From the IMG/VR virus record IMGVR_UViG_3300035498_000944: a DNA stretch of 59,558 nucleotides; one strand, given 5' to 3'. The notes beneath the pieces were generated by a model that was given only the letters and a program-made list of their open reading frames with translations, made no database searches and had not been told where the DNA came from. Shown piece by piece: positions 8,428-54,720 of the stretch. The stretch is from a virus (Duplodnaviria > Heunggongvirae > Uroviricota > Caudoviricetes). Position 1 is the stretch's first letter. Each line of letters begins with the position of its first letter. The translations under genes were made by a program, and so were the position numbers.

Positions 8428-8465
8428 TCATTATATATGGATATGGAACTTCTTATTTTTCTGAG
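8428..8465 (-). promoter_or_regulatory. Putative element-specific promoter, copy 1
   Basis: Minus strand CTCAG-AAAAATAAGAAGTTCCATA-TCCATATATAATGA; same geometry at 34091 and 54683. Confidence 0.75.
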
Positions 8466-8479
8466 ATTTAAAAACTTTT

Positions 8480-9841
8480 TTATTCTTCTGCTATGTTTCT
8501 AAATAATTTTATGTAAGGAACTGAAAAATAACTATCAGGTCGTTTATTCTTCAATTTTTTCTTTGTGTGTATCTCATTGATAGAAAAGTAATCATCTACA
8601 ACACAGGTAATAAATGTACTATTATAAATTGTTGAATCGTCAATAATACATTGAGTTAATTTAGAGTTACCAAATACTTTTGAATTACTGAGTAGAGTAG
8701 TTCTAACTAATTTAGCATCACCGAATACTTGACAACCTCTGCAAACTTTAGAATATACATCTACACGACAATCACCCTCTTGAGATAAGCATGAGTAGTC
8801 AAATATGTAACCACCTAGAGTTCCATCAATATATTTTATTCTATGTAATCTTTGACCATTGTAAACTAGAGTATCATTCCTACTCAACACATATTTGTTT
8901 CTAGGTTCTGATATAACAGACTGTCTACAATTTAAAATTACACCATCATAAATTTTATTAGTATATTCATTACCGTAAACATCAGCATTTAAAACCTTAT
9001 TAGTAAATCTATCCGATACACAGCATACTCTACTATCTTTAATACTAGCACACTCTATTCCAGGACAATCCTCAATTGTAGAATTAATTATTGTAGAACT
9101 ATCAATGGTAGAATTTCTTATAGTAGAATTTATAATAGTTGATACATAACTTATTTTAGCATTAGCATCTAGATGACTGTGTATGATGTAACCACCATTA
9201 ATAACACTAGGATTATGTCTATCCATACTGGAATCTTTAGTCATCACAGCACCTTTAAAGGGCTCTAGACTATCACTTATAGAAGCATACTTCTTATCTA
9301 ATAAAGTGTAGTGTATAGGATAGAGCACAGTGCCCATGTATGGAGTTCCTTCAAATAAATTGAGGAAGTATCCTTTAAAATTCTGATACGTGAAGTCAAG
9401 CATCTCAGCTGTAGGATCCTTTATATTTACTATATTATCTTTACTGCGCAATAAAGATAATTTACATAACTTCTCACTAGGATCATCTATCTCAGAAATT
9501 ATAAATGGGTGATTCACCAACAGTCTTTTTAACCTTACATCATCATCTGTTTTAAAATCTGATAAATCTACTTCAATATCTGCAGGATTTAAAGTGTTGT
9601 ATCTATTATAAATATCTATCAAATACTCTATACAATCATCATCTGACATATCTTCTTGAAAGTCGGTATTTAAATAATTGCACCACTGCTTAACCACTCT
9701 AGCATAATCGGGTTTTAAATTAACCATATTATGAGCTAACTTTCCGGCATACAGGTTTATGAAGGCCCTAGGGTATAGTGCTTCACAAACTACATATTGA
9801 CGTATTTCAGTTTTTAACATCTTCCCACTTTCCTTCTTCAT
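8480..9841 (-). CDS. Hypothetical protein with C-terminal phage-type beta-helix-like repeats (real start may be 9820)
   Basis: LHRIKY..GTLGGYI....LSQEGDCRV followed by VFGDAKL/VFGNSKL repeats resembles a common phage beta-helix module; STIINSTI repeats in the middle. Confidence 0.6.
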   Translation of the reverse strand: MKKESGKMLKTEIRQYVVCEALYPRAFINLYAGKLAHNMVNLKPDYARVVKQWCNYLNTDFQEDMSDDDCIEYLIDIYNRYNTLNPADIEVDLSDFKTDDDVRLKRLLVNHPFIISEIDDPSEKLCKLSLLRSKDNIVNIKDPTAEMLDFTYQNFKGYFLNLFEGTPYMGTVLYPIHYTLLDKKYASISDSLEPFKGAVMTKDSSMDRHNPSVINGGYIIHSHLDANAKISYVSTIINSTIRNSTIDSSTIINSTIEDCPGIECASIKDSRVCCVSDRFTNKVLNADVYGNEYTNKIYDGVILNCRQSVISEPRNKYVLSRNDTLVYNGQRLHRIKYIDGTLGGYIFDYSCLSQEGDCRVDVYSKVCRGCQVFGDAKLVRTTLLSNSKVFGNSKLTQCIIDDSTIYNSTFITCVVDDYFSINEIHTKKKLKNKRPDSYFSVPYIKLFRNIAEE

Positions 9842-11198
9842 GGTTCCACTTTTTGTTGCTGGTACGATTACCAGCTGTTACATTTAAGGCAGTTACACTT
9901 AACCATAATATGAAAATAAAAACATTTGGTTTGGAGTCTTTAATGTCTTTAGGAATATTTTTAAACTTCTCTGTATCACCAATGTTACCAACTACTTGAA
10001 CAAGTATATCTTTCATTTCGACATCATAAAGCATGAGAAGCTTTGAAAGTTTAGCCACAGCCTTATTATATTTACTGTCAGATTCACGTGCATAAATATC
10101 CAAAGAACACATTATTATTGAGCGTAAGGTTTCACGTGTCTTAAACTCATAATAATTCTGTTCCTGTTTTATAACTTCTGGTGCATGTTCACAAACATTA
10201 AATTTGTTAGAGACAGCAGCTCTCCACATGTTCAATATAGTCTTGTCAACATCGAAACTTAGAATAAGTTTATTATTCTTAGCACATTCTTCTAGTACAG
10301 CTGTAGCTCCTTTTGTACGCATAGGATATGCAGCAGCCATACGGATGAGTATATCATCATCAAGAAGTTCATAAGCTCTAAGTTTAGGATTAAGAACCTC
10401 TTTAAGATTCTCATCAGAAAGGAATACTGCAAGTTCTACCATTCTAATATCTCTAAACCTTGGAGGTACTTTCTCAAAAGTAATCTTCTTTAAGGAAAGT
10501 TCCCTTGCATAATAATCTCTATCGTGGTAAATACGAGATTTCTTAACTTTAGATTTCTTATATTTATATGGTGTCTTTTGAGTTTTACCCATCTGAAGCT
10601 TGAGATTAAAATAAACTTTACCCTCATAGTAGTAGTTATATTCTCTAGATGCTAAGATAATGTCTTTGAATATATTACGCACTCTATAAGATAATTGCTT
10701 ATAAGACATAAGCTCACGAATAGATGTAGGTACATCACCAAATGTGATACTCTCATTTGTCTTACCACCAAGCATTCTCACAACGATAGTATCACCATTG
10801 TATGGGTTTGTAATCTCAATATTATAATCATCAATGTCTTTTACTGATTCACGCAGAATATCAACAATATCACTAATAGGTGTATCTGGAGAATACCACC
10901 ATCCACGATAATTGTTTGGATCCCTCTGTGGTTTAGGCTTTTGTTTAGTAACTTTAATTCCTGCAGCACGACAGAATGATATAATATCTATATCAGACAT
11001 TACATCAAATTTCTCAGCGTCTCTGATCTTAACAGAACATTCCTCATATATTGTGTTGAGGAGCTTCATATTTTCTTCAGCTTCTACCAATTTTTCAGGA
11101 TTTTGCATATAGCTATCTGGATGCCACTGCTTACTGTAAGTCCTGTATTTGTCACGTAACTCTTTCATAGTCGTGCACAAATATAAATCGTCAAACAT
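9807..11198 (-). CDS. J-domain (DnaJ-type) protein
   Basis: N-terminal ELRDKYRTYSKQWHPD...AEENMKLLNTIYE with the HPD motif; remainder unrecognised. Confidence 0.8.
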   Translation of the reverse strand: MFDDLYLCTTMKELRDKYRTYSKQWHPDSYMQNPEKLVEAEENMKLLNTIYEECSVKIRDAEKFDVMSDIDIISFCRAAGIKVTKQKPKPQRDPNNYRGWWYSPDTPISDIVDILRESVKDIDDYNIEITNPYNGDTIVVRMLGGKTNESITFGDVPTSIRELMSYKQLSYRVRNIFKDIILASREYNYYYEGKVYFNLKLQMGKTQKTPYKYKKSKVKKSRIYHDRDYYARELSLKKITFEKVPPRFRDIRMVELAVFLSDENLKEVLNPKLRAYELLDDDILIRMAAAYPMRTKGATAVLEECAKNNKLILSFDVDKTILNMWRAAVSNKFNVCEHAPEVIKQEQNYYEFKTRETLRSIIMCSLDIYARESDSKYNKAVAKLSKLLMLYDVEMKDILVQVVGNIGDTEKFKNIPKDIKDSKPNVFIFILWLSVTALNVTAGNRTSNKKWNHEEGKWEDVKN

Positions 11199-11218
11199 TT
11201 TGTACTTCCTCCTTTTAT

Positions 11219-13164: not shown

Positions 13165-13620
13165 TTATTTGCCTCCCTTACTATAAGATATGTTTACAGT
13201 CTGTGTACTGTTATCATAAGAAAGAGAGTATAATTTATTTTCCTCATCACGCATAGATTCAACGAATGCTCTAAGCGGAATGTAAGGAACTGTATTATTT
13301 ATATAATCAGATCTAGCATCTGAAGCATAACAGAGCAAACCATCTTCATATACAGGAACTTCTTTTATCTTATTAGAGTATACATGGTAACCATTCTTAT
13401 AAATAACTTCGTGAGAAATTGCATTATAGGTAACTTCACCACCAGGTATCTTACCCAATGCAGAATAGTTTATTAGTAGTCGCCCATTTCTATTTACAAC
13501 ATCAGAACCTTGAGCGATAACTGTATTGCCAAACTTTATTGTATAGTTATAGGCATATGTTGGCAAGGACATACCTATAATTGTTGCAGTAGCAATTATT
13601 ATTGAAATGAGCTTTTTCAT
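13165..13620 (-). CDS. Secreted copper-amine-oxidase N-terminal (stalk)-like protein
   Basis: Signal peptide; GRLLINY..LG...GGEVTYN and PYIPLRAFVE....SYDNSTQTVNI. Confidence 0.7.
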   Translation of the reverse strand: MKKLISIIIATATIIGMSLPTYAYNYTIKFGNTVIAQGSDVVNRNGRLLINYSALGKIPGGEVTYNAISHEVIYKNGYHVYSNKIKEVPVYEDGLLCYASDARSDYINNTVPYIPLRAFVESMRDEENKLYSLSYDNSTQTVNISYSKGGK

Positions 13621-13649
13621 TATTAAACCTCCTTAATGAAAATTAATTA

Positions 13650-13713
13650 CAATATATTACGTATGAATCCGAAGGTAATATACTGTAAGAGATGGGATAA
13701 ACTTATCCCATCT
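13650..13713 (-). terminator. Twin hairpins closing the pilin cluster
   Basis: Plus strand AGATGGGATAA-AC-TTATCCCATCT (13690-13713, overlaps the stop of 13703) and CAATATATTAC-N14-GTAATATACTG (13650-13685). Confidence 0.55.
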
Positions 13714-17625: not shown

Positions 17626-17649
17626 GGAGGGTTCACTTAAGAACCCTCC
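17626..17649 (-). terminator. Perfect 9-bp hairpin with TTAAGT loop after the probable major pilin
   Basis: Minus strand GGAGGGTTC-TTAAGT-GAACCCTCC then TATTTGT. Confidence 0.7.
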
Positions 17650-17693: not shown

Positions 17694-18209
17694 TCAGCTC
17701 TTACCTGAAGAAGCTACAAGTGTACCATCGTTGTTGTACTGAACAAAATCAATACCAACAACCTGCTCATTTGTATCACGGATAAGTGTAGCCTTGAATT
17801 GAGCATTAGGTCTTACATATGTTACCTTTGTCTTATCTGTAATGTCTGCCATTGTACCATCAGCAGATTTACCTGTAAGGTCATTCTTTGAATCTGTACC
17901 AGTTGTTGTAGTTGTAAGCTGTGCACAGTAGTTCTTGCCACCTGTGTCTCTAGCAGTAGCAATGATAACACCAGTTTCTGTACCCTGATACTGCTGTACA
18001 GCTGCGATTACCTTCTGACCTGAAACCTTTGTACCATCATATTCAGCATAGGACTTTTCGTCGAGTGAGGATACCTGAGCACTAAGCTTGTCCTGACCAT
18101 CCTGGTTAGCCTGCATAGCCATGTAGACGAAACCGAAAATAATACCTACGATAACAACAATAATAATAACTGTAATGGCGTTCTTGATACCATCTGACCA
18201 ATCTGTCAT
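17694..18209 (-). CDS. Probable major pilin of the Tad-like pilus
   Basis: First of the paralog run, with its own structured leader and 3-prime hairpin; N-terminal hydrophobic helix then small globular domain. Confidence 0.6.
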   Translation of the reverse strand: MTDWSDGIKNAITVIIIVVIVGIIFGFVYMAMQANQDGQDKLSAQVSSLDEKSYAEYDGTKVSGQKVIAAVQQYQGTETGVIIATARDTGGKNYCAQLTTTTTGTDSKNDLTGKSADGTMADITDKTKVTYVRPNAQFKATLIRDTNEQVVGIDFVQYNNDGTLVASSGKS

Positions 18210-27517: not shown

Positions 27518-27541
27518 CTATGTTATTAATAGAATTAATAT

Positions 27542-27630: not shown

Positions 27631-27668
27631 ATATACTACAAATACTGAAGAGATAATCATACATTAAA

Positions 27669-40618: not shown

Positions 40619-40648
40619 ATAGCAATCACTCTCCAGATGTATAAACTT

Positions 40649-41044: not shown

Positions 41045-41045
41045 A

Positions 41046-41843
41046 TTATTTCCACCACGTTTCACCATTTACAGAATCCACTTTTGATGTATTAGCATAA
41101 TCAGTACCTTTCTTTATGCAGGTATCATAATTAAACATAGAAAGATCATCCAAAGTATTCACCCAACCTTTGTATATAGCTGCAGGATTTACTAAGTGTG
41201 ATGTAAAAGTATTAAAATCGTAATCAGTATCGAATATTGACATTTGCAAGTCAAGATGTATACCATATTTATTAGGTTGAGTAGCACTGGCAGAACCTCC
41301 TTGTATACCTATCTGTTGACCGGCTTTGACAGTATCTCCAACTTTCACATACTTAGAAGTACTTCCAATTACCATATGATTGTATCTACTGTATATAGTT
41401 ACACCATCTATCTTATGCTGTATTATGCATGATTCTCCATAGTCGGTATTTAGGCAACCATTGGCTACAACAACACCATCCCACACAGCAGCGATACCTG
41501 CAGTAGTACTATTGACAGCAAGGTCTATAGCTCTATGAGTAGGCTGTCCTTGTGCTATATGATAAGCACTATAGTATGATGATGTTACACTTGCTAACTT
41601 TGCATCAGCGTCTACATATGGAGCATGAATATTTTTTAAAGTAGATGTTGAACTATCATTACTATCTGCATTTTCATTTACATCAAGTGAATCATTTCCA
41701 GTTACATCTTTACTTATTGAACTAACTTTAGTGCTAGATAGATATAAAGTATTGTCTGGACTCAAATCCTCTGGGAGGAAGATTACAAATTCAAACACCA
41801 GAATAGCTATAAGTACAATAACAACTATATGTGATGCACGCAT
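41046..41843 (-). CDS. YLSSTKV-anchored M23-family peptidase
   Basis: HRAID, AAVWDGVV, SRYNHM, VKVGDTVKAGQQIG, HLD (variant of HxH). Confidence 0.85.
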   Translation of the reverse strand: MRASHIVVIVLIAILVFEFVIFLPEDLSPDNTLYLSSTKVSSISKDVTGNDSLDVNENADSNDSSTSTLKNIHAPYVDADAKLASVTSSYYSAYHIAQGQPTHRAIDLAVNSTTAGIAAVWDGVVVANGCLNTDYGESCIIQHKIDGVTIYSRYNHMVIGSTSKYVKVGDTVKAGQQIGIQGGSASATQPNKYGIHLDLQMSIFDTDYDFNTFTSHLVNPAAIYKGWVNTLDDLSMFNYDTCIKKGTDYANTSKVDSVNGETWWK

Positions 41844-41872
41844 TTCTATGTACTCCCTCCAAAAGTCTATTA

Positions 41873-42202
41873 CTAGAACTTAACAAATACTTTGTAATCT
41901 TTATTAAAATAAAACTCGGCTTTTGCATGAGCCTGCTTAAATTTCTGTAGATCCTCTAACACAGGACTTATTATCTGATATGTACCAGATTCTTTTAAAT
42001 CATTCAAATCTTCATCATCTACAGATTTATCTGCATATAATTCTTCATTGAATGTACACATATTTAAAACATTTTTATCTACTGCTACAGCAACACCTTT
42101 AGTAGGTCGATCATAACTCATAGGTATAAATTTATCAGAAGATTTACTGCATCCTGATGCAATAGACATTAACAAAATCAAACCAATAATTCTTAATTTC
42201 AT
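41873..42202 (-). CDS. Small lipoprotein (not family L)
   Basis: ASG-C lipobox. Confidence 0.7.
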   Translation of the reverse strand: MKLRIIGLILLMSIASGCSKSSDKFIPMSYDRPTKGVAVAVDKNVLNMCTFNEELYADKSVDDEDLNDLKESGTYQIISPVLEDLQKFKQAHAKAEFYFNKDYKVFVKF

Positions 42203-43575
42203 TATGTACCTCCTATAGTTATATTTCTACTATCTACCCAAACACGACACATATATCTAATTTCATTAGGATGTGCCTGAAGTATTGCTCTATCAACTTT
42301 AGGTATTTCAGTCGTTACATCTAGCCAACCAAGTAAAGTCTTTAACATAGCTTCATCCCATTTAGCATCATTCTTGTAATTGTGATCAAGTTGATCCATA
42401 AATTTATCTTGATACTTTTGTACAAGTTCCATGTACGCTTTCTCTGGCTTCTCATCTTCAACACCTAGAGCAGTTATGTAATCATATGTTAAATTAGCTA
42501 TTTCAATATCATCTGTAAGCATTGTTAGAGAGTGATTTGAATCATTATTGATATTATGCTCATCAACAAATCCTCTATCACTTGAACCGAAGTTAATGTC
42601 TAATTCACCAACTATACAATTAAAGTGATCAGATATTACCCATTTATCCATTTCACCTGCATAATCCCAAGAAGGAGTATTCTCATAAGTATAGTCTTTT
42701 CTTTTAGAATACTCTACAAAAGATATAGGATTCATACGAGCATTGGGAACAGGATGATCGGCAAATAGCAAAATATTATCTGTCAAACATCTCCTGAGAA
42801 TATAATCCATTGTGACCTTTTCTGTTGGTGTTGGATTATAATCTCTTGGATCCTCTGTTTCTTCTGATGTATGATCTTCATTAGCGACTGCTAATAGTCT
42901 CAAGGCTTGATAGTCGTCTTGAATGTTTTTAAAAATCTTACATATTTTTACAGAGGAAGAACTGTTTCTTAATGCTGTAGCTAATTGTTGATTCAATCTG
43001 TTTATTTCAGAAGAATATCTAGCTTCCTTTGAACTTATGTCTGAATCTGCTATAGGAGCAGAACCTCTCCATTCCATATAATCTGGAAAACAGATCATCC
43101 ATCTCTTTTGCAAATCGGAATCTAGTTCTTCAGGATCTATATTATACCAACCGCATTCACGAATATAAACTGGATAGTTTAATTTCATATACTTGTCATT
43201 ATGTGGATTATCCATAACTTTATTATAGGCAGATATAAAAGCAATAGGGCTCCATGTATCTACATTAGTCATTTGCTCTGCATAATGACACATAGTATTT
43301 AAAATGTATTCATTGTACTCTTTATAAGGAATATAAATTTTATCCAAATCAGTTTCATCATCCTCATCTATGCCCCAAATTATCTTTTCAATATTGTTAG
43401 GCATAAAGTACATATCTTTACATTTATATGTGATTTTAGTTTGTTGAGTGTAGGGTGTAACACCTAAGCTAGGGTTGGATTTTAAGTTATTAACATAAGC
43501 ATAGCAAGGTATGCAATTTGAAGACAGCACACCAATTAATAGTAGCATCATTAGGTGCTTTTTCATACAGCACAC
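42202..43575 (-). CDS. Secreted hypothetical protein
   Basis: Signal peptide; 457 aa; no recognised domain. Confidence 0.7.
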   Translation of the reverse strand: MCCMKKHLMMLLLIGVLSSNCIPCYAYVNNLKSNPSLGVTPYTQQTKITYKCKDMYFMPNNIEKIIWGIDEDDETDLDKIYIPYKEYNEYILNTMCHYAEQMTNVDTWSPIAFISAYNKVMDNPHNDKYMKLNYPVYIRECGWYNIDPEELDSDLQKRWMICFPDYMEWRGSAPIADSDISSKEARYSSEINRLNQQLATALRNSSSSVKICKIFKNIQDDYQALRLLAVANEDHTSEETEDPRDYNPTPTEKVTMDYILRRCLTDNILLFADHPVPNARMNPISFVEYSKRKDYTYENTPSWDYAGEMDKWVISDHFNCIVGELDINFGSSDRGFVDEHNINNDSNHSLTMLTDDIEIANLTYDYITALGVEDEKPEKAYMELVQKYQDKFMDQLDHNYKNDAKWDEAMLKTLLGWLDVTTEIPKVDRAILQAHPNEIRYMCRVWVDSRNITIGGT

Positions 43576-43597
43576 CCTCCTTTATGTTTTATATATT

Positions 43598-43999
43598 TTA
43601 CTTGTTAGGAGTATATATTATACCCATAACGTGATCATTAACATCTTCAATATCTGGAACCAAACTACCTCTACAAACAAGCTTGCTATCTTTTTCTTCT
43701 ACGACTAAGCCCTTGAGAAGAAGACAGTAATTCATAAGATCTGTAATCTTTTCTTCCCATTTTTCAATAGGGTAATCTCCATTATCAGCCACCATGTCAT
43801 AGAGAGATGTGACATGTTTTGTCATCATTCCTAGTAAAGCTTGCTTTGGTGTGTTCTTCTGTAAAGAAGCTGCAGTCTTAAACTGAATAAGTCTATCCTG
43901 TGAACCTATTACATAATCACTTTCACCTTTTGCAGTGATGAGATTAGAACAGGTATTCAGCTGCTCTTCTACCACTTTGTTAAATCTGTCAAATGTCAT
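43598..43999 (-). CDS. All-alpha NTP-pyrophosphohydrolase-like / nucleotide-modification-associated protein (start re-set to 43999)
   Basis: AKG..Y....DRL..FK.AA...TP..AL.GM..KH..S..D...W.EKI.D..NY..LL pattern seen in phage proteins; AAGGAGG RBS before ATG 43999. Confidence 0.6.
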   Translation of the reverse strand: MTFDRFNKVVEEQLNTCSNLITAKGESDYVIGSQDRLIQFKTAASLQKNTPKQALLGMMTKHVTSLYDMVADNGDYPIEKWEEKITDLMNYCLLLKGLVVEEKDSKLVCRGSLVPDIEDVNDHVMGIIYTPNK

Positions 44000-44031
44000 T
44001 TTGTTAACCTCCTTAAGTCTGTTGATTTTTA

Positions 44032-44531
44032 TTATAACCAACCATCCTCATCTGTATCCCAATCTGGAATGTCATAAGGATAATGTGGGTCATTTACATC
44101 AATTATTTTATCAGGTGTCCTAGACACATAATACTGATCATTACCACAAACTGCATGAGTCCTACACATTACTTCAAATAGATCGTTGTATTTTAAACCA
44201 ACTTCTTCGAGCAATGGATATAAGTCTGCACGTCCCTCTGGGATAGTTCTTTGTGTCACAAACATAGGAACATAATGTCTGATATATTCATCTTTATGTA
44301 GTGTTTCGTCTACACCAGCTATACTGATATAGTGTCCTTTGATTCAAGGTATTTACAATTGTCCCATATGAATCGTATGACCCAATCAGAATCACCAGAT
44401 AGACTACTATATTCCTCAGTTATTGTTGCAACAGGAATTGACTTGTACATAATATATGCAGTTCTAATTCTATCAATATGTTCAATGCGTCTATTTACAT
44501 CATAATCTCTAGGAAGTTTATATTTAGTCAT
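44032..44531 (-). pseudogene. HipA-partner (antitoxin-like) gene split by a 1-nt deletion
   Basis: ORFs 44319..44531 and 44032..44265 join into ...LESKGHYISIAG...MFVTQRTIPEGR if one A is added to the AAA at plus 44338-44340. RTIP..R...L...GL...DLFE..C.T...D.YY resembles partners of HipA-like kinases. Confidence 0.65.
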
Positions 44532-45436
44532 TAATTAACCTCCTAACTTCTTTATAAGAATCTTCTATTGATAATCTTTCAATAATATGAAGGTATCTCA
44601 TACAAACTATTTCAATATAAAATCGTTTATAAATTTCAGGTATAAAATCAGATATGTCATTTACAACAAGAACTATGTTTTTATATATAGTTTCTATACC
44701 TAAATTATTTCTAAAATAATCTAGTCTACTATTTAATAATGAACTTATATTTCTATCACCAATAATTTCATAATAGTTCGTTTTACGTGTACCTTTATTA
44801 ATATCGTCAACTCTAAACATAGAGGCTGGAAATCTTTCAGATCTATCAGATAAAAATTTAAATTCATCAACCTCAAATTGATTTATACTTCTGCATACAT
44901 CTGGAAATAATGAATATCTGTTATCATAAATAGGTGCTATAAGATATGTAGAACCGATCGTTAGGTATCCCCAGTTTCCATGATGACGGTCTCTATTTCC
45001 AAGTATAGCGTCACAGATATACATGTCCCAAAAAATGTTTTAGCATCTTAACTTTCATGTCTTTGGATAACTTAAGATGTTTATTAATTAGATATATAAC
45101 ATCATCGTATGTATATGTTTTATTAGAGATATCTGTATCTTCACTTGACTGCCTTGTATCCTTAAAAGATCTTAACGATATATTAGGAGATGTAAAGTCT
45201 CTCAATATAGTTACAAGTTCTTTCTTATAAAATCCAAGCCATGTTTCATGACATGGTATTTTTAAGGATCTTATAAATCTTGAAGCGATATGTTCACTGT
45301 ATAAAGCCGATATAGAAGATTCTTTGTGTTTTACAATATAGTTATACTTATCAACAGTTATACCAAATTTTAAAGAGTTGCCATCATATAATTTACGATT
45401 ACGCATTTCATCAGTTACGATAAATCCATTATTCAT
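44524..45436 (-). pseudogene. HipA/CtkA-like Ser/Thr kinase split by a 1-nt insertion
   Basis: YDGNSLK..YIVK..SEHIAS (N-lobe) and DAILGNRDRHHGNWG, APIYDN (C-lobe); removing one T from the T6 run (plus A6 at 45030-45035) gives KHFWDMYICD in one frame. Confidence 0.82.
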
Positions 45437-45465
45437 ATTAGACCTCTCCTTAAAGTTTTATTTGA

Positions 45466-45990
45466 TTAGATACTATCTGTTGCCTTAGTTATAGAGTCTA
45501 CACTAAGTATTAGACCAAGGTCTGTTAAGAGAGATATTTTACCCTTATTATTTATAACATGAGTTATGGTCTGACCCTTTAAGCTAACAGAATTTATATC
45601 ATAAATTGTTATGGTTGCACTGTGTAATTCAACAACAGGCTTACCTTTGATTTGTTTATTTTTAGTATACATATTACTTTGAATTTTAGCATTATTTATA
45701 ACTGAAAGTTTACCTTGTGCTTCATGATAACATATGCTGTCGTTAAGAACTTTAAAGCCATCAAAGTCATCTCTAAAAACAAATGGACGGACATCCTTCT
45801 TAGGCTCACAACATAAGAGCTTTACACCATTTATGAAACATACAACAGGCATGAATGAATCATAGTAGATGATATCGACGGTATCTCCTTCTTCTATATT
45901 ACTTGTATTGGAAAAGCTATATAAAACTTCTCCATTATCAAATATTAGACAATTTCCACTTTTATGTAATATCTTCACATTTTTATTCAT
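45466..45990 (-). CDS. Hypothetical protein
   Basis: 174-aa ORF with GGAGG RBS. Confidence 0.7.
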   Translation of the reverse strand: MNKNVKILHKSGNCLIFDNGEVLYSFSNTSNIEEGDTVDIIYYDSFMPVVCFINGVKLLCCEPKKDVRPFVFRDDFDGFKVLNDSICYHEAQGKLSVINNAKIQSNMYTKNKQIKGKPVVELHSATITIYDINSVSLKGQTITHVINNKGKISLLTDLGLILSVDSITKATDSI

Positions 45991-46008
45991 ATGGTAGTTT
46001 CCTCCTTA

Positions 46009-47175
46009 TTACCATTCCCCATTATACCTAGCTTCTGTAATCATATAGGATATTAGTGACATAACTGGATAGTTATCTGATCCTGCAGCATTTGCGATTT
46101 TAGAAACTAGTCTCATTGTCTCTGCATCTCTTACAAATCTTGAAGGCTTTTTAGCATCTATATATTCTTTTATTTCTGGTACATATGTAGCAATAATAGC
46201 AGCACGTCTGGCATAATTTTCCTGACCAAGAATACCTGTACCTCTATTATGTCCCCACATTAATAATGTAACCTGAGCATATCTATCACTTAGATTTGTT
46301 AGGGCACATTTACCATTTACTTTCCTTAATGTTGTGTCATAGACAGCAAGACACAAATTAGCGGAATCTGCTATAGACCATCTATCAGCTTTTGTACCTA
46401 ATTTCCACAGTATAGAAGTTCCACCTGCTGGATTAGCACCAAGATCAATCCAACAATCTGTTCTATGTGTGCCATCTGTTCCAATTAATCCAAACTCTTC
46501 AGGTATGACAGGCGTTACACCTTGACCGTAAAAAGACTCTTGCTGAAATGGACCTATAGCACCACCAGATCTTCTTGTTACTGCAGAAGTTCCAAATGTA
46601 CTATTTACATATTTCCAATTATACTTAAGCATGAAATCTTCAGTATAATCCTCTGTTCTCACAGGCCACGAAAATACAAGACCTGGATCATTATAAGCAT
46701 AGCCATATTCAACTGCACCCAAGGCTATAAACCATTTAGGATCTTTTACAGGAATATAACTGGTTTTAGACATATATCGGTCTACAATATTATACACATC
46801 CGAATTTAATTTATTACAAACTTCAGGATTAGCTGAACTGTATTTAATATTACGTGATGAAGCGACATATGTCTCTGATCCTATACTACTAGAATTTTCA
46901 ACTAACACTTCGTAAGGTGTTAAGTCTAAGTCATCAACAAGTGATGCTTTTGAGTAAGGATCATTGGAAGGTGCATTCTTGATATAATCTGTAACATCTT
47001 TTGTTATAGGATCAACCTTAGTTTTATCTGTATCTTCGTTCAATATATGTCCATATCTTGCATATTCAAGTGAAGATAATGGATCTACGATTTCAGCATC
47101 TTCAGCCATTGTAAGTAAACTATTACCTAAGATAGCCACAATTGTTAGCATAGCTATAACAGTAGTATACTTCAT
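46009..47175 (-). CDS. Secreted SLT-like lytic transglycosylase
   Basis: Signal peptide; FIALGAVEYG (catalytic Glu), GAIGPFQ, LMWGHNRGTG (YNAG-like) in the expected order. Confidence 0.62.
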   Translation of the reverse strand: MKYTTVIAMLTIVAILGNSLLTMAEDAEIVDPLSSLEYARYGHILNEDTDKTKVDPITKDVTDYIKNAPSNDPYSKASLVDDLDLTPYEVLVENSSSIGSETYVASSRNIKYSSANPEVCNKLNSDVYNIVDRYMSKTSYIPVKDPKWFIALGAVEYGYAYNDPGLVFSWPVRTEDYTEDFMLKYNWKYVNSTFGTSAVTRRSGGAIGPFQQESFYGQGVTPVIPEEFGLIGTDGTHRTDCWIDLGANPAGGTSILWKLGTKADRWSIADSANLCLAVYDTTLRKVNGKCALTNLSDRYAQVTLLMWGHNRGTGILGQENYARRAAIIATYVPEIKEYIDAKKPSRFVRDAETMRLVSKIANAAGSDNYPVMSLISYMITEARYNGEW

Positions 47176-47220
47176 ATATCAATCTCCTCCTAAAATATTT
47201 TATGTACCTAAAATAGGTTC

Positions 47221-48036
47221 TTACTTTAATATATTTGGTCCTTTCTGAAAAGATTCTATTTTCTTGTTATAACGAGGATTTGTTGGATCACTAACAGCCA
47301 TATTACCCTGTAGCTGCTGTTTGGTTGCATGTGTACAATCTATATAAAACTCAAGTGCACAAGTTTGAGATCCACTAGTCTGCCCCCAATAATTACGGTT
47401 TTTTGTATGCTCAGCAGCCTTAGCATCGACCATTATAACGCCAAACTCTGTACCATCTTCACAATTTACTTTAAACAAAGTACCTATACCAGAAAGCAAA
47501 GCTTTATTTGCTGCTGCATCACTATTTATAGTACTTCGTTGACTATCAGGCGTTACATCTTGAGCAGATAGTGCTACTGTATAATATCTATAACCATTAT
47601 ACTCAAAGTAGCAATAACCACCCTCACATATTACTTCTTCTTGCTTGGCTAATTTTGATTGATATGTACCAGAACCATTTCTCCATCTATAATAAAAATT
47701 ACCTTTAACGGTGGCTGTACCACCAACATAATAGGTAAAAGTGGAAAGAATACTAGAGTACTGTTCGGGAATTGTTGATTTTTCTCCCCATTCTATAGAT
47801 GGATCTATACCCTCTGCAGTTGATTTACCCCCTGATGAGGGATTGATCTCACCATCATTATTGTCATCTGAGCTAACTATAGTTTCATTGACATCCTTAA
47901 CTTTTGTAGAACTCAAATATATGTTACTACTTAAGATATCTTTCTCATCTTTGTAGGTTGCTGGTAGGAACATGATTACCATAATCATTCCTATGACACC
48001 AGCAACTACAACTGCTATACTTACAGGTTTATCCAT
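47221..48036 (-). CDS. YLSSTKV-anchored protein with a DPBB/RlpA-3D-like C-terminal domain
   Basis: RYYTVAL...GIGTLFKV..EDG....VIMVD topology; the family call is tentative. Confidence 0.5.
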   Translation of the reverse strand: MDKPVSIAVVVAGVIGMIMVIMFLPATYKDEKDILSSNIYLSSTKVKDVNETIVSSDDNNDGEINPSSGGKSTAEGIDPSIEWGEKSTIPEQYSSILSTFTYYVGGTATVKGNFYYRWRNGSGTYQSKLAKQEEVICEGGYCYFEYNGYRYYTVALSAQDVTPDSQRSTINSDAAANKALLSGIGTLFKVNCEDGTEFGVIMVDAKAAEHTKNRNYWGQTSGSQTCALEFYIDCTHATKQQLQGNMAVSDPTNPRYNKKIESFQKGPNILK

Positions 48037-48113
48037 TTACAAAAGGACCTCCTTTAGAGGTAGATTCTTTCGAAAGAAGGCAACATAGCTATAACAGTGA
48101 TGTACTTCATATA

Positions 48114-48548
48114 TCAATCTCCTCCTACATAATACTTACCTCCCACCTCACTGTTTGGGAAGGTTCTTTTAAAATAATTTATTTTACCTGAACTATCAAT
48201 TGTAAATTCAATATTAACAGGATTGTCGATTAGAGTAGCTGTAGCTGTGTATGTATGTTTATCTATTTGTGTTATTTCATTTATAACTACTGGATTTGGA
48301 TTTTTCTCATAATCAGAATAGACATATAAAGTGTCTTCATAAGCATCACATCTTGGCAAATATTCAGTCAGAATTTCAGTTAATGCATCACCTGAGAATT
48401 CCTCTCTTATTGTATTTGGAGATACTTCTGGATTTGGGTATATAATCATTAGATTAACTAAATCAGTGTAATCTTTCTGATTATCTTTACATCCTGTAAA
48501 AAATGGTAATACTGCGAATAAAATAATTAATAACTTCTTCATAATCAT
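48114..48548 (-). CDS. Lipoprotein, paralog family L (copy 1)
   Basis: FTG-C lipobox; IREEFSGDALTEILTEYLP; ATGA overlap with the lysozyme gene. Confidence 0.78.
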   Translation of the reverse strand: MIMKKLLIILFAVLPFFTGCKDNQKDYTDLVNLMIIYPNPEVSPNTIREEFSGDALTEILTEYLPRCDAYEDTLYVYSDYEKNPNPVVINEITQIDKHTYTATATLIDNPVNIEFTIDSSGKINYFKRTFPNSEVGGKYYVGGD

Positions 48549-49276
48549 TTACCTGCATATTCTTTCTGTAGATCTTGAGCATAACCATAACGTGTATTTG
48601 TATTATCTACTTTAGGTTTTTCATACTCTGTACATATAAAATGTGTAATCTCATATAGAGTATGATCTGCTTCTAGATACGACTTGAATTTAGGTGCACT
48701 CATAAGCTCCCACATAGTTTCAAGCTGAGGTTCTGGGTCACCTATAGATTTACCCATTTTCTTTGCATTATCAACCAATTGTTTTGCAATAGACCAATAT
48801 GTAAAACCTATTAAGCCAAAGCCAGTACTTGATCCTGGCTTTGAATACCACCAAGTATTACCACCATTATCTACTGTAGATATAAAGTCTAGAGTCTTTT
48901 GACTAGGAGTACTACCATAGTCACCTTCTAATCGTTTAAATGTTAAATTAGATTCAGCCTTAAAATTGCCCATCAATCCGAATATTGCATTATCTGATAG
49001 ACCTTTGCCTTTTAGAAAGTAATATACCTTATCAGCATCAGTATCTCCTTTCAAAGTAGTACTATCTGATGTGTCATCAGAAGATTCTACAGCACTACCT
49101 GACTCGGTGGAATCCACAACAGTAGACGTAACATCCACTACTTTAGTAGAGCTCAAATATAGACTTTTATTTAATAAATCCGTTTCATCCTCAAATAGTG
49201 CTGGTATAAAGTTAACTACTAAAATAACACATGATATAAATGTAATTGCTACAACTATCCTTAGGGGATTACGCAT
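48545..49276 (-). CDS. YLSSTKV-anchored phage-tail-lysozyme-family muramidase
   Basis: KGLSDNAIFGLMGNFKAESNL, GFGLIGFT, QLETMWEL, EYEKP, RYGYAQ. Confidence 0.85.
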   Translation of the reverse strand: MRNPLRIVVAITFISCVILVVNFIPALFEDETDLLNKSLYLSSTKVVDVTSTVVDSTESGSAVESSDDTSDSTTLKGDTDADKVYYFLKGKGLSDNAIFGLMGNFKAESNLTFKRLEGDYGSTPSQKTLDFISTVDNGGNTWWYSKPGSSTGFGLIGFTYWSIAKQLVDNAKKMGKSIGDPEPQLETMWELMSAPKFKSYLEADHTLYEITHFICTEYEKPKVDNTNTRYGYAQDLQKEYAGK

Positions 49277-49294
49277 TTATGGAATAACCTCCTT

Positions 49295-50176
49295 TTAGAG
49301 ATAATCCTTCTTCAAAGCTACTTGCTTGGTAGAACCTGAGGATGCAGCTGTCTTACTTGTGGTCTTTGCATTAGTAAACATTGCCTTGAAGAAATCCTTC
49401 ATAGTGACTTTCTGTCCTTTGCATGCTGCACCAATAAGACTCTTAAATGTTATAAATGCTATACCGCCAGATACAGGTATAGTCAAAAGAAGACCTGCAC
49501 CTGAGAAGTCTAACAAGTGAACGAAGCTACCTGCAATGTTACTAATAAGAGCTGTTATCATTGATCTACCCTTGACCATCTCAGCCATTGTAAGATCTAA
49601 TCCAGTAAGTTCCTTGTACTTCTTCTTAAAGGACATTTGGAATATGAGCATAGCAACACCCATATCATCCAACATACCGACACCGGGTATCTCATCCACT
49701 ACAAGATCTATAGGGGATAGATAATAAATAAGTGCAAGGATTAATGGAACTCTCATAGCTCTAAGAAGTTCTAATATATCAACTTGTGGAATATCACGAT
49801 CATCTCTATCATGCATCATATTTACGAAAGTACCTGCACCTTTGTTAGCAGCATCATGTGCACTACTCTTTACCTTGTCCATAGTTGAAGGCTCCTGACT
49901 AGATGCAACCATTTGCTTCTCAGGTACCTTATGCTGCTGACAAGTTGATTTAGCTGGAGTACTCTCTGTTTGTACTGGCTTTGGTGTAGATTTATCAGAT
50001 GTCTCAACATCTGAATTTAAAGCATAAGCATTAGAAGAATCTATACCACCAGAGTTGCTAGAAGTAACATTTTGTGTTGTAACAGTCTGAACTGTATGGA
50101 CAGTATTACAAGAACTATTGCTTGTGTTGTTTGTGTTACTACTATTTGTTGTTTCATTTTGAGTAGTATCAGGCAT
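49295..50176 (-). CDS. YkvA/DUF1232 membrane protein with a low-complexity N-terminus
   Basis: ALIYYLSPIDLVVDEIPGVGMLDD. Confidence 0.8.
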   Translation of the reverse strand: MPDTTQNETTNSSNTNNTSNSSCNTVHTVQTVTTQNVTSSNSGGIDSSNAYALNSDVETSDKSTPKPVQTESTPAKSTCQQHKVPEKQMVASSQEPSTMDKVKSSAHDAANKGAGTFVNMMHDRDDRDIPQVDILELLRAMRVPLILALIYYLSPIDLVVDEIPGVGMLDDMGVAMLIFQMSFKKKYKELTGLDLTMAEMVKGRSMITALISNIAGSFVHLLDFSGAGLLLTIPVSGGIAFITFKSLIGAACKGQKVTMKDFFKAMFTNAKTTSKTAASSGSTKQVALKKDYL

Positions 50177-50260
50177 ATTATCAACTCCTTCTACTTTATA
50201 ATCAGAACTTGTATTTATCTATATCTGTTGCTAATTTAATCACTACTATTATCATTCTGA

Positions 50261-52744
50261 TTAAATTTTATTCTTTCTCTGTTGACGTTGATTTTGTTTA
50301 TCTATCCAGTTTCTTTGATAGGAACCAGCTAGTTGTTTACCATATTTAAACACACCTAAGAATTGCATATAAACTACTGTACCTATTATGAAGGTTAGTA
50401 AGTAAGGAATAAGCTGTAATAGTATAAGTGTGAGATAACCAACTGCAAAAGTTATAGCTGAAGTTATATATAGCTTTGGTTTAGGTATACCTGCAAGTTT
50501 AAAGAACTTCAAAGCTGGAGTTTGAGCAACAGCATCGTTAGAGATTTTATCGTCAAGCAAATCTGTAAACGGACCATTACTAAACACAATATTAAAGGTT
50601 GCTTTAACTAACACAGGGTATCCCCATAATGCAAGGACTAAGCCTACAAAGAAACCAAGACCTTGTTTAATAAATGTTATTATATAAGCACCCATTGTTG
50701 CTAAAAGGAAAGTTAAGAATAACCTTGGTAAAAACTTAAGCAGTATCTTTAGAGCATTATCAGCTTGAGTAGGATCAATGTATTTTTCCTGACTCTCTGT
50801 AGCTGGTTGTTTTTGTTGTACTGGCTGAGTTTGCTTAGGAGTACTTAACTGATTTGTCTGAGTTGACTGTTCTTTAGGTTTCTGAGCTGGTTGTGTAGTC
50901 TGAGGTTTTGTATTCTGTGAAGGCGTATTTGTAGATGTTGGATTTTTATCAGCACCTTTAACCATGTTCACAGATTTATCACCATACTTGTCAATATGCT
51001 CCTGTGTAATAGTAGTACCACTAGGTACATGAGCTTGAGCAGCAGTGACTGCTGTTATACTTGATTTATATTGATCAATCATAGACTTCATCTCAGCATT
51101 TTGAATCTGAAGATCTTTAACAACTTTAGACATTTCCGTAAGTTGTTTTTTAAGTTCATCAACTTCATTCTTAGCGTAAGGGTTAGAGGAATCTATACAA
51201 GTCTTTGTAGTTGCAGTAGCTGTTCCTGTCTTAGAAGCATGGCTGCTGGTTGACTTGGAAGCTTCTTTAATACTTGTATAATAATCACGTATTTTACTAA
51301 GCATAGATGGGGTGTGAAAACCATACATCTGCGATATTAACAATATCGTAAAAGACCATCTTATAGCAGTTTCATCAAGTTTACAACCGTAATCTTGTAC
51401 AGCCTTCATATCAGATTCAGCACACCTTAGTAACTCTTTAGAGTCTTTGATGTTCTTATACTCGGCTGTTGCAGAAGCTACTTTGTAATAGTTTAGGAAT
51501 ATGTTGTCTACAGCATCAGATAACTGACCATCTTTATACTTTACAGATAAGGCTATTAGCTTCTTTACACACTCATCTGTATCTGAAGCATAATGTTCTC
51601 TTAGATATGTATGAACAGCTTTTACTTCTTCTTTGGCAGACATACCGGATGAAGATGTAGGAGGTGTAATTGTTGTAAATTGAGCTGATGGTTTAGATGT
51701 ATTTGTAGAAGATGCCTGAGTATTTGTAGAAGATGGTTTAGTATTTGCAGAAGATGACTTAGAGGTATTTGTAGAAGATACTTGTGTATTTGAACTCTTA
51801 CCTATATTGTCCTCTGTAGCTGTTTTAACAATACACTTCTTGACTATTTTAGCATCACCATGTATGTTGTAAATAGTTATAATACCAGGTTCTATATTTA
51901 CAACTTTATTCCCTTCACCTTCAAATACAGCGTAATTAAAATCCTTTCCACTTTTATAATAATTTTTAACGAATTTAAGATCTTTAGCATCATAAAGTGG
52001 AGCTATAAACTCTGCATCTTTTATTACGTTAGTATCAGTCTTTATCCATAAATGAACTGCACCATCAGAACCGGATGGGCTAACATTGATGTATGAAGAA
52101 GCAACGCAAGCTTCGTAAGCTTTCCATCCATTTGGAGGATTCTTCCTATCCTTAAACTTCATTTGGTCTAATCTTAAAGATGACTTAGAGGATGAAGATG
52201 TTTGAGATGATGAACCTTGTGGTTTAGTAGTTGATTGTGAACTTCTAGCTTGAGAAGCTGAAGTTTGAGGCTTAGTATCTTGAGGCTTGTGAACTGTAAG
52301 TTCTGTAGGTTTAGAACTTTGTGCATTTGAAGATGACTCGGTCTTATTGCTTGGACCATCTTCTACAGTTACAATACATTTACGTTCAACTTTTATATCG
52401 CCTAAAGCATTTGCCCACCCAATCTTACCAGGGGTTATAGAGGTTACTGTATTACCAGTACCCTTTATCTCAACTATTGCTGAAGGACCCCGACCTGCTA
52501 AGTATCCTTTAATGTCTTTTACTTTGCCATTATAAAGTGGAAATACATACTCAGAGTTTGATGGTGGAAAGCTTGTAGTATTTACCCAAATTGGTATAGT
52601 TAAACTATCAGGATCACTTCTCATATATACGCATGGTGAAGCAGCAGCTAATCCTATATCTAATGCCATATATCCTGGTGGTGGCGTTTTTCTTTGTTTC
52701 CATTGCATTTGTTCCAATGATAAAGCCATATATGATTCCCCCAT
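50261..52744 (-). CDS. Large membrane protein with a duplicated N-terminal domain, S/T/Q linkers, coiled coil and C-terminal TMs
   Basis: LSLEQMQWKQRKTPPPGY and LRLDQMKFKDRKNPPNGW begin two similar ~125-aa units. Confidence 0.75.
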   Translation of the reverse strand: MGESYMALSLEQMQWKQRKTPPPGYMALDIGLAAASPCVYMRSDPDSLTIPIWVNTTSFPPSNSEYVFPLYNGKVKDIKGYLAGRGPSAIVEIKGTGNTVTSITPGKIGWANALGDIKVERKCIVTVEDGPSNKTESSSNAQSSKPTELTVHKPQDTKPQTSASQARSSQSTTKPQGSSSQTSSSSKSSLRLDQMKFKDRKNPPNGWKAYEACVASSYINVSPSGSDGAVHLWIKTDTNVIKDAEFIAPLYDAKDLKFVKNYYKSGKDFNYAVFEGEGNKVVNIEPGIITIYNIHGDAKIVKKCIVKTATEDNIGKSSNTQVSSTNTSKSSSANTKPSSTNTQASSTNTSKPSAQFTTITPPTSSSGMSAKEEVKAVHTYLREHYASDTDECVKKLIALSVKYKDGQLSDAVDNIFLNYYKVASATAEYKNIKDSKELLRCAESDMKAVQDYGCKLDETAIRWSFTILLISQMYGFHTPSMLSKIRDYYTSIKEASKSTSSHASKTGTATATTKTCIDSSNPYAKNEVDELKKQLTEMSKVVKDLQIQNAEMKSMIDQYKSSITAVTAAQAHVPSGTTITQEHIDKYGDKSVNMVKGADKNPTSTNTPSQNTKPQTTQPAQKPKEQSTQTNQLSTPKQTQPVQQKQPATESQEKYIDPTQADNALKILLKFLPRLFLTFLLATMGAYIITFIKQGLGFFVGLVLALWGYPVLVKATFNIVFSNGPFTDLLDDKISNDAVAQTPALKFFKLAGIPKPKLYITSAITFAVGYLTLILLQLIPYLLTFIIGTVVYMQFLGVFKYGKQLAGSYQRNWIDKQNQRQQRKNKI
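51699..51792. repeat. Coding tandem repeat GTATTTG(T/C)AGAAGAT, period 21-24 nt
   Basis: Copies at 51699, 51720, 51741, 51765 and a partial one at 51786; encode SSTNT/SSANT repeats. Confidence 0.8.
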
Positions 52745-52756
52745 TTAAAATTTTAC

Positions 52757-53524
52757 TTATTGTGTAACTTCATATTGGCTGTAGGAAGAATCAATAGTAA
52801 ATCCTATATTCATTGCAAAACTCCATACAGTTTCCAATTCTGTATGATCTCCCACATAAATATAAATATAGCTAATACTCTTAGGAGAAGTATATTCAAA
52901 TAATATTGCACGAAGCAACCAATCTAAAGCTTCCTTGCTCGTGTAATCTATATTCTCAATTATGCAATTATTGTTTTCTGCTAGATTATATTCATTAGAA
53001 TGAAGTGACACTCCAGTTACAACTTCATCATGAATACTTAATGTATCTACGACTGCCTTAGCTAATATATGAAAATCCTTAGTAATTGATATGTTACACA
53101 GATTATCATTCTTCAACTTAGAGACCTCTATACCAGCAGGTGTATCATAATCAATAATCATTCTGTTAGTACTTTTAAATTTTATAGTATAACTTGTCGT
53201 TATGTATTTTAATGTTATAGGTTCTATAAGCATTACTATCTTTTCAAATAATGGTGCAATCTTTTCTGATATAATAATTTTATCTAATGCATTTAATGGA
53301 ATCTCTGATGTATACCCGGCTAATACAGACACCTGCTTGCTAGGAGCTACAGAGTCATTTGCAATAACCAGTAATGTTCTTTTTATTCTAACACATACAA
53401 TATCGTATTGTAAAAGAGTTAAAGAAATGTCTTTCAACTTATGCCCTGTTACAAATCTTGTAAAAGCTAAAAGATCTGATACAGATAATATAGATCGTAT
53501 GTGCTCTAAATCACATGATCTCAT
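52757..53524 (-). CDS. Hypothetical protein
   Basis: 255-aa ORF with AAGGAGG RBS. Confidence 0.7.
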   Translation of the reverse strand: MRSCDLEHIRSILSVSDLLAFTRFVTGHKLKDISLTLLQYDIVCVRIKRTLLVIANDSVAPSKQVSVLAGYTSEIPLNALDKIIISEKIAPLFEKIVMLIEPITLKYITTSYTIKFKSTNRMIIDYDTPAGIEVSKLKNDNLCNISITKDFHILAKAVVDTLSIHDEVVTGVSLHSNEYNLAENNNCIIENIDYTSKEALDWLLRAILFEYTSPKSISYIYIYVGDHTELETVWSFAMNIGFTIDSSYSQYEVTQ

Positions 53525-53581
53525 ATGGACCTCCTTTTATAACTGTTATTAGTGATTTAATTGGAAATAATAACAATCATA

Positions 53582-53603
53582 GAGAGGTGACTTAACACCT
53601 CTC
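53582..53603 (-). terminator. Perfect 8-bp hairpin with TTAAGT loop
   Basis: Minus strand GAGAGGTG-TTAAGT-CACCTCTC, just after the stop of 53612..54577. Confidence 0.7.
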
Positions 53604-53611
53604 ATTTTATC

Positions 53612-54577
53612 TTAAGAAATAGGCAATGTTAATCTTACATGGGTAGCACTAATCTTTTCAAATGTTACCTGACCATTATAATCTGATATTGCCATCCATC
53701 CATCAGTAGTATGAATGGTATTGTTGTTGAGAATCTTAATGTAATATTTATCATCTTCAAACTTTACTTTAATAGGTACTTTTATACCATCTGGTCTATA
53801 CCACGCACCAGACGTACACAAACCTTCTGAGTTAACTTCTTTAGGCTTTACAAATATTTCAAGATAAGCATGTGTGTCGTTAGATGGTTTCTGTCCCCAA
53901 GCTGTACTTAAAGTCCAAGGTGCTGTATCTGCAGTATATGAGAGTAAACCTCTATACATATATGTTGCTGGGACTTTGAATGCATCTAAACCAAGAACAG
54001 CTTCTTCAAAACTATCCAAGTCATTCTCGTCCTCATCGAGCTTTAGTTGAGATGTGTTTACTACACGCTTACCTGACATAGCAGTTACACTATAGCCAGA
54101 AGTATCTGTTTTATAAAAGCTTGCTGAGATATTAGCTGTAGATATATCATCACTAAGCAGATCACTATATTCAGACATATACATTAAAGGCTTACTCAGT
54201 GAAGATTGTATGTAGTCAAAGTAGTCATATTCATCTGAAGATGATCCATTGTTGAGTCTTACCATCTCAGTTGTTGGATAATATACATTCTTACCAGAAA
54301 TAAGAATATTATTGAAATATGATGAACGACCCTTAGCATCAGAATATCTTATGGAAGCAACCTGATAATTATTTGTGATGTTAGTGATTGTTATAGTAAC
54401 AGTTCTTGCTAATGAACTCGTTTCATTTATAGGAGTATTCTCCTTATAAGTGAGAGTACATGTGTTATAATCCGCAGTACCTGCTAACATTTTATGGAAC
54501 TTGTTTGTATCAGATACACTACATCCAGTACAAAGAAGTGTGACTAAAAATGTTAGCATTAAAAATATCTTTCTCAT
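53612..54577 (-). CDS. Lipoprotein
   Basis: CTG-C lipobox; 321 aa. Confidence 0.75.
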   Translation of the reverse strand: MRKIFLMLTFLVTLLCTGCSVSDTNKFHKMLAGTADYNTCTLTYKENTPINETSSLARTVTITITNITNNYQVASIRYSDAKGRSSYFNNILISGKNVYYPTTEMVRLNNGSSSDEYDYFDYIQSSLSKPLMYMSEYSDLLSDDISTANISASFYKTDTSGYSVTAMSGKRVVNTSQLKLDEDENDLDSFEEAVLGLDAFKVPATYMYRGLLSYTADTAPWTLSTAWGQKPSNDTHAYLEIFVKPKEVNSEGLCTSGAWYRPDGIKVPIKVKFEDDKYYIKILNNNTIHTTDGWMAISDYNGQVTFEKISATHVRLTLPIS

Positions 54578-54682
54578 AATCTAGTCCTTTCTATATCATA
54601 AATGTATTTAATGATATACTTTTAAAGTTCTGTAGGATCTTAGATTACAAGATACAAACACTAAGATCATTTTATCTTCTTC

Positions 54683-54720
54683 TCATTATATATGGATCAC
54701 CAGATAAAAATTTTCCTCAG
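54683..54720 (-). promoter_or_regulatory. Putative element-specific promoter, copy 3
   Basis: Minus strand CTGAG-GAAAATTTTTATCTGGTGA-TCCATATATAATGA. Confidence 0.75.

Follow-up and report, generated by a model that had tools for sequence, protein, structure and literature searches.

A conserved intergenic motif, probably a class of promoters lacking a -35 box, in an element carrying its own RNA polymerase genes

The window analyzed here, 59,558 nucleotides from IMG/VR virus record IMGVR_UViG_3300035498_000944 (Caudoviricetes), is the last 59.5 kb of a 123.5-kb contig and belongs to a large mobile genetic element with genes for a bacterial-type RNA polymerase: the beta subunit (4182-7817), the beta-prime subunit (1-2532, running off the window) and a 323-residue protein with a weak match to the alpha subunit. 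Its other genes encode a DnaB-like helicase, a primase, SSB, VirB4/TraG-like and TadA/VirB11-like ATPases and numerous hydrolases of the cell wall; the window gave no match to a capsid, portal or terminase, nor any tRNA or Rfam family. Every window gene of at least 100 residues is encoded on the minus strand; the exceptions are a few overlapping frames, probably spurious. Three gaps between these minus-strand genes (8392-8479, 34074-34136 and 54578-54725) hold a two-part motif whose best interpretation is a class of promoters lacking a -35 box; the three sites are most likely the element's main promoters. A preliminary description had reported an identical 14-mer three times, intergenic and on the coding strand, which the coordinates and gene gaps bear out:

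8428-8441, minus strand: core of site 1, TCCATATATAATGA, with TATAAT at 8430-8435 and a predicted transcription start near 8423, give or take 2
8455-8465, minus strand: upstream box of site 1, CTCAG-AAAAAT (CTCAG at 8461-8465), at about -42 to -32
34091-34104, minus strand: core of site 2, TCCATATATAATGA, with a predicted start near 34086
34118-34128, minus strand: upstream box of site 2, CTCAG-AGAAAT (CTCAG at 34124-34128)
54683-54696, minus strand: core of site 3, TCCATATATAATGA, with a predicted start near 54678
54710-54720, minus strand: upstream box of site 3, CTGAG-GAAAAT (CTGAG at 54716-54720)

Read along the minus strand, each site runs AAAW, CTSAG, RRAAAT, 13 unrelated bases and then the 14-mer. 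With TATAAT put at -12 to -7, the 14-mer spans -18 to -5, RRAAAT -37 to -32 and CTSAG -42 to -38. TATAAT is present at all three sites, and the hexamer 17 nt upstream of it reads AAATAA, AAATAA and AAATTT at sites 1 to 3, as expected from the earlier remark that a -10 hexamer stands there with no TTGACA 17 nt upstream; no TTGACA-like hexamer lies 16-18 nt from TATAAT at any of them, and scans with promoter consensus sequences also missed the sites. A TG at -15/-14, as in a TGn or TRTGn extension, is likewise absent, TCCATA standing at every window site. A start codon with a good ribosome-binding site follows 16-105 nt downstream of each site. The core is partly symmetric, with five of its seven symmetric position pairs complementary (a near-palindrome, TC..TATATA..GA), and no RNA structure was found to involve it. 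At site 1 a second TCCATA (8442-8447, minus strand) precedes that of the core to form a tandem, TCCATATCCATA, where the relative introduced below has TTCCTTATCCATA; a GAAGGT common to the upstream sides of sites 2 and 3 is merely the 3' ends of the two upstream genes.

Only two coding-strand 14-mers occur three or more times in the window, TCCATATATAATGA and one repeat inside paralogous genes, and in 100 second-order Markov simulations such 14-mers averaged 0.02. With 97 occurrences in 59,558 positions (1.6e-3 per position), CTSAG does not stand three times at one fixed offset by chance, and since the three spacers have nothing in common the sites did not arise by recent duplication of one segment. 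Within the window TCCATATATAATGA has exactly three copies on the minus strand and none with one mismatch, and the lone match at two mismatches lies on the other strand.

A sister element allows a comparison. In the protein collection a single close relative was found, a 202-kb contig from run SRR26717865 with 73% identity to the window in the beta subunit and 86% in the VirB4-like ATPase; about 85 kb of it were read, as loci L023, L002, L008, L003 and L064, and its gene order is that of the window. It carries the motif at each of the three matching positions and again at a fourth (RX), ahead of an MreB/Hsp70-like gene whose equivalent in the window's genome would lie just before the window start, where a further copy is predicted ahead of that gene, about 5.4 kb from the start; short contigs of the element from other samples end before this expected fourth site. 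In the following list, distance means the bases between the upstream box and the 14-mer:

L002:9360-9373: R1, matching site 1; degraded box TCTAG-AAAAAT, distance 18 nt, 14-mer TCCATATATAGTGA
L008:9214-9227: R2, matching site 2; box CTCAG-AAAAAT, distance 19 nt, 14-mer GCCATATATAGTGA
L003:12053-12066: R3, matching site 3; box CTGAG-AAAAGT, distance 20 nt, 14-mer ACCATATATAATGA
Ahead of the MreB/Hsp70-like gene: RX; box TTGTG-AAAAAAT, distance 19 nt, 14-mer TCCATATATAATGA

A 13-base core, CCATATATARTGA, is present in all seven sites of the two elements, and the sole variable position within it is A/G at -8, so that the -10 hexamer reads TATAAT or TATAGT in the relative's four sites; -8 is among the least constrained positions of sigma70-type -10 hexamers. 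Around site 2, coding DNA is 65-77% and non-coding DNA 67% identical between the elements and the 13-nt spacers have diverged, while at the three matching sites 12-13 of the 13 core bases are identical (P ~3e-4 at 70% identity). The motif departs far from chance expectation, and strong purifying selection preserves it at matching intergenic positions of the two related elements. The same comparison tempers the first account of the upstream box. Exact 19-nt spacing holds at all three window sites and gives way in the sister element to 18, 19 and 20 nt; CTSAG, present at every window site, is found in five of the seven sites overall (at a distance of 19-20 nt in those five) and is absent or degraded in the other two. 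The box is real but softer than the core. In both elements, across the 59.5 kb of the window and the ~85 kb of the relative, we found no degenerate copies and none on the non-coding strand, which leaves densities of three sites in 59.5 kb and four in ~85 kb. Beside site 1 itself the two elements differ: the 453-residue gene directly upstream of it in the window (8480-9841, minus strand) has no counterpart there in the relative, where a DnaJ-like gene adjoins the gap.

Beyond this pair, the motif is absent from the position matching site 3 in relatives whose ATPases are 61%, 53%, 51% and 45% identical, and we have seen it only in the two polymerase-bearing elements. Matches to a sigma70-type consensus are no commoner in the window than in shuffled sequence, and its sole perfect TTGACA-18-TATAAT is intragenic and not conserved. 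The full two-box pattern had one match among viral contigs, which we set aside as an ordinary TTGACT-17-TATAAT promoter; it belongs to an unrelated group of viral and metagenome contigs (L001:2100-2150; L033, L042, L044) that read GCGCTGAGACTTGACTTCT.AGCGCTTTCCATATATAATGA. This promoter happens to contain the same 14-mer and a CTGAG, showing that a host-type -10 region can accommodate the 14-mer. With a looser pattern there were 40 matches in metagenome contigs, none with protein similarity to the element and in a number equal to chance expectation. No DNA match to window positions 50000-55000 was found in the phage collection, and a search of species genomes with the beta alignment returned only ordinary bacterial rpoB, having the flap tip and NADFDGD. 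Literature searches returned only unrelated primers and genes for the core sequence and nothing relevant for such elements.

Each site heads a unit of the same design, in which one leader gene is followed by a stable hairpin and then by a long co-directional gene block. The block behind site 3 holds wall hydrolases and unknown genes, that behind site 2 replication and pilus-type genes, and that behind site 1 the polymerase genes; the sites lie 14-26 kb apart, which is also the length of the blocks. The units comprise the following features:

8014-8391, minus strand: leader gene of site 1, an acidic 125-residue protein, first gene of the polymerase-holding block
7979-8000, minus strand: hairpin after the site 1 leader, UUAAGU in the loop region, -17.7 kcal/mol, z-score -4.5
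1-7817, minus strand: polymerase block downstream of site 1, with beta (4182-7817), a YdjM-like gene (3532-4167), the alpha-like gene (2547-3518) and beta-prime (1-2532)
33822-34073, minus strand: leader gene of site 2, a small membrane-type protein with a probable GTG start at 34073, conserved in the relative
33375-33402, minus strand: hairpin after the site 2 leader, UUAAGU loop, -15.6 kcal/mol, ending a 546-nt stretch free of open reading frames
53612-54577, minus strand: leader gene of site 3, a 321-residue lipoprotein whose signal peptide has an LLCTGC lipobox
53582-53603, minus strand: hairpin after the site 3 leader, UUAAGU loop, -14.7 kcal/mol

The 125-residue leader protein matched no family and its Atlas model is poor. 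The three hairpins (-14.7 to -17.7 kcal/mol, z-scores -3.8 to -4.5) have imperfect U-rich tails.

Several other features of these blocks deserve mention. A fourth stable, GC-rich UUAAGU hairpin (17626-17649, minus strand) follows the gene at 17694-18209, which has no upstream motif. All four have tails that are only partly U-rich, so they may act as attenuators or bind a protein; hairpins occupy the matching places in the relative, mostly with other loops (L002:9808-9832, L003:13072-13094, L002:1507-1529). The 546-nt stretch between the site 2 leader and the next gene (33276-33821, minus strand) has no convincing open reading frame and no Rfam match, shares 67% identity with the relative (84-86% in some blocks), and could represent either a long leader or a non-coding RNA. 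The interval from the site 1 hairpin to the beta gene contains a hydrophobic 37-residue mini-open reading frame with a strong ribosome-binding site (7837-7950, minus strand), conserved in the relative (L002, about 9860-9975), and a 151-nt gap at 27518-27668 (minus strand) is a conserved small open reading frame of about 45 hydrophobic residues with ~85% DNA identity to the relative. An AT-rich inverted repeat, ACAGTATATTAC...GTAATATATTGT, with 12-nt arms of which 11 of 12 positions pair in the window, stands in the gap ahead of the gene at 13165-13620 (13621-13702, minus strand; L002:5420-5503 in the relative); it is conserved in the relative and may be an operator or an RNA structure. Just past the point that corresponds to the window's contig end, the relative has a 2.9-kb non-coding region (L064:5214-8112) full of recurring inverted repeats (GCCTAGAG..CTCTAGG, GGTGGATAAGGTTTCC..CCTTATCCACC and TGTATGTAAAGAGCTTACATACA), which might serve as an origin, form an iteron field or encode an RNA array, and which is probably the reason the window's contig breaks there.

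The polymerase beside the motif is itself unusual. The preliminary description had taken the flap tip to be missing, and alignment A3 agrees: in both elements about 34 residues are missing from beta, among them those of the EERLLRAIFGEKA flap-tip helix conserved in bacterial beta, and HMMER likewise leaves the flap-tip stretch unaligned and shortened. In bacterial polymerases the flap tip positions sigma region 4 for recognition of the -35 hexamer, and Kuznedelov and colleagues are said to have found, in 2002, that flap-deleted E. coli polymerase uses only extended -10 promoters. The missing helix fits a promoter without a -35 box, since an enzyme of this kind would call for an over-specified -10 element and no -35 hexamer. 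Searched alone against solved structures, the first 350 residues of beta-prime gave no match; in the full alignment its clamp helices are recognizable, with A and K where Thermus has R and E. We take these two columns to be E. coli R275 and E295, reported to be important for sigma70 binding.

The one sigma candidate among the element's genes, a 137-residue protein (31564-31977, minus strand) with a weak NCBIfam match to ECF sigma factors (E-value 0.0032, 17.5 bits against a cut-off of 217), was dropped: Pfam gave nothing, and its structural model, with a predicted local distance difference test (pLDDT) score of 88, is a plain four-helix bundle with generic helical matches only. It belongs to a small family, with eight homologues at 27-70% identity among 1.8 billion representatives. 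Scans of the window with PHROGs and other collections found no gp55- or gp33-like protein, and no MotA- or AsiA-like gene was seen. Nor did the core and its spacing give a consistent fit to the known consensus sequences of SigE, SigK, SigF/G, SigH, Sig28, Sig54, ECF, SPO1 gp28/gp34 or TcdR promoters; the SpoIIID site (GGACAAG-like) resembles neither box.

Transcript data touch the element lightly. Four gut metatranscriptome runs include pieces of it at 99% identity or more, as short contigs. Those on 39600-59558 are scattered, about 150 nt long and of depth ~2, too thin for transcription starts, strand or gene ranking. One piece, 54540-54689, extends 11 nt past the predicted start of site 3, too little to count as bridging the site, and may be read-through RNA or DNA carry-over.

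The promoter reading draws its strength from a core kept at matching intergenic positions while the spacers diverge, together with the common orientation, the distance to ribosome-binding sites and the position at the head of gene blocks. The motif, its conservation and placement, the missing flap tip and the lack of a -35 box are observed; that transcription starts at the sites is inferred, as are the enzyme that reads them and the roles of the upstream box and the hairpins. Our tentative preference is that the element's polymerase, lacking its flap tip, reads the sites, and that -10 recognition comes from host SigA or an element factor. The invariant 13-bp core would then be the melting and recognition element, a TATAAT extended by CCAT upstream and GA downstream over the span covered by sigma70-type regions 3.0, 2 and 1.2, and the semi-conserved CTSAG-RAAAAT box at about -42 to -32 would offer an auxiliary upstream contact. 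A beta subunit without the flap-tip helix would be unable to bring sigma region 4 to a -35 hexamer at a distance of 17 bp and would rely on the over-specified -10 element, read either by host SigA seated on the element's core enzyme or by an unrecognized element factor. Each promoter would drive its leader gene, and transcription would pass the hairpin, probably a partial terminator, into a block of 14-26 kb. Somewhat doubtful, in our judgment, is a bolder form, in which the core is the cognate promoter of a new transcription system: the unsplit alpha/beta/beta-prime polymerase of a plasmid-like giant element, its flap tip lost and its clamp helices changed, would find the core by its own factor or by itself and with no host sigma, and CTSAG would be a second contact at an unusual distance.

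Several observations weigh against recognition by the element's own enzyme. Pfam, NCBIfam and PHROGs scans of all 63 open reading frames of the window found no sigma-like protein, and no sigma family is among the precomputed Pfam assignments in the ~85 kb read from the relative. TATAAT is a perfect -10 sequence for host SigA. The polymerase operon itself lies behind the motif, so that an enzyme that was the sole reader could not start in a new cell, and the host enzyme would be needed there or at another promoter. The invariant 13-bp core exceeds the usual demand of a sigma factor, and a second protein may also bind there. No transcript start is seen at any of the sites, in contigs that are too short and shallow to show one. 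The relative's block upstream of site 3 starts after its 2.9-kb repeat-dense non-coding region with no motif, which means that the element has start signals of another kind as well; and with the motif carried by two elements only, its link to the polymerase rests on two related genomes. The preliminary description had offered both the element's enzyme and an activator-dependent host SigA as readers, and our comparison strengthens the promoter assignment and leaves these two side by side. Host SigA holoenzyme, helped by an element-encoded activator on CTSAG-RAAAAT near -40 that replaces the -35 contact, is a possible alternative, though on balance not the one we expect. Such an activator would be called for by a perfect TATAAT with neither a -35 hexamer nor a TG, would fit the retention of the upstream box at the relative's sites 2 and 3 while the spacer diverges, and, in switching on the leader genes and the polymerase operon, would solve the start-up of the operon behind site 1. 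However, SigA does not explain why the CCAT and GA flanking the hexamer are invariant in seven of seven sites, the box is absent or degraded at two of the seven and its distance ranges over 18-20 nt, and no activator was identified; the pairing of a promoter lacking a -35 box with a polymerase lacking the flap tip would, moreover, be a coincidence.

Information in the core far above what a promoter needs, and its five complementary pairs, could also be accounted for if the sites combined a promoter with an operator, the dimer site of a global regulator of the element overlapping the -10 hexamer and coordinating the blocks. The same site does stand ahead of functionally different blocks, the polymerase operon included, and the arrangement is compatible with either promoter model, but by the same token it excludes neither; the symmetry is imperfect and AT-rich, every copy has one orientation with respect to the genes, something a symmetric operator would not require, and no regulator was identified. 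We consider this combination unlikely. Less likely again, to the point of being quite improbable, is that the sites are not promoters and instead mark a processing or binding site in read-through RNA, or a recombination, partition or replication site in DNA that chances to hold TATAAT. The thin transcript contigs, with no start seen, would suit that view, as would the single unbroken co-directional gene array, in which read-through across the sites is likely; yet a location just ahead of ribosome-binding sites, one shared orientation, a perfect -10 hexamer and conservation in two blocks all fit a promoter, the core takes part in no RNA structure, and partition and replication sites are usually clustered and not set 14-26 kb apart ahead of genes.

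The motif owes its interest to the unusual polymerase beside it. Few elements bring a complete bacterial-type polymerase, and these have hardly been studied; establishing what the enzyme reads is a first step toward understanding them. The sites make its promoter specificity directly testable, including whether host sigma can be used without a flap tip, how promoters are found without a -35 box and how work is split between the host's enzyme and the element's own; as run-off templates of about 45 bp they come in three natural variants per element, with the sister's variants as ready-made mutants. Were the core the cognate promoter of a new polymerase system, it would give the first promoter consensus for such an enzyme, and even as ordinary activator-dependent SigA promoters the sites would mark the control points of the replication, cell-wall and polymerase blocks.

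Among known systems, the sites have the -10 hexamer of a canonical sigma70/SigA promoter and lack its -35 hexamer. The IncP plasmid RK2 has KorA and KorB operators at many promoters, coordinating its operons, and an identical, partly symmetric site of 12-14 bp over the -10 hexamer of several operons is common to both cases, but RK2 places true palindromes beside ordinary -35/-10 promoters, whereas here the -35 is missing and the symmetry weak. The promoters of T7-type, phiKZ and AR9 non-virion polymerases also are near-identical, element-specific sequences before gene blocks in a genome that encodes the polymerase; the element described here differs in having unsplit bacterial-type beta and beta-prime with an alpha-like subunit, in a cellular -10 hexamer within the motif and in only three or four copies per 60-85 kb. 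T4 middle promoters (a MotA box and a sigma70 -10, with AsiA) and class II promoters likewise join a host-type -10 to a conserved upstream box in place of the -35, although the present box is centred near -40 and not -30, has the unrelated sequence CTSAG-RAAAAT and is missing or degraded in two of seven sites. T4 late promoters, TATAAATA, are read by gp55 with gp33 on the flap, and resemble the sites in consisting of a single over-specified -10 element with no -35, the contact of sigma region 4 with the flap being unused for DNA recognition. Here, in contrast, the core is ATATATAATGA, no gp55- or gp33-like protein accompanies it, and the element brings its own core enzyme where T4 redirects the host's. 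Extended -10 promoters, with the consensus TGn in E. coli and TRTGn in Bacillus, differ from the sites in that CCAT stands here in place of TGn or TRTG, the GA downstream is fixed and a box lies near -40; they share with them a consensus -10 hexamer, no usable -35, extra fixed bases just upstream and, alongside, an enzyme without the flap tip.

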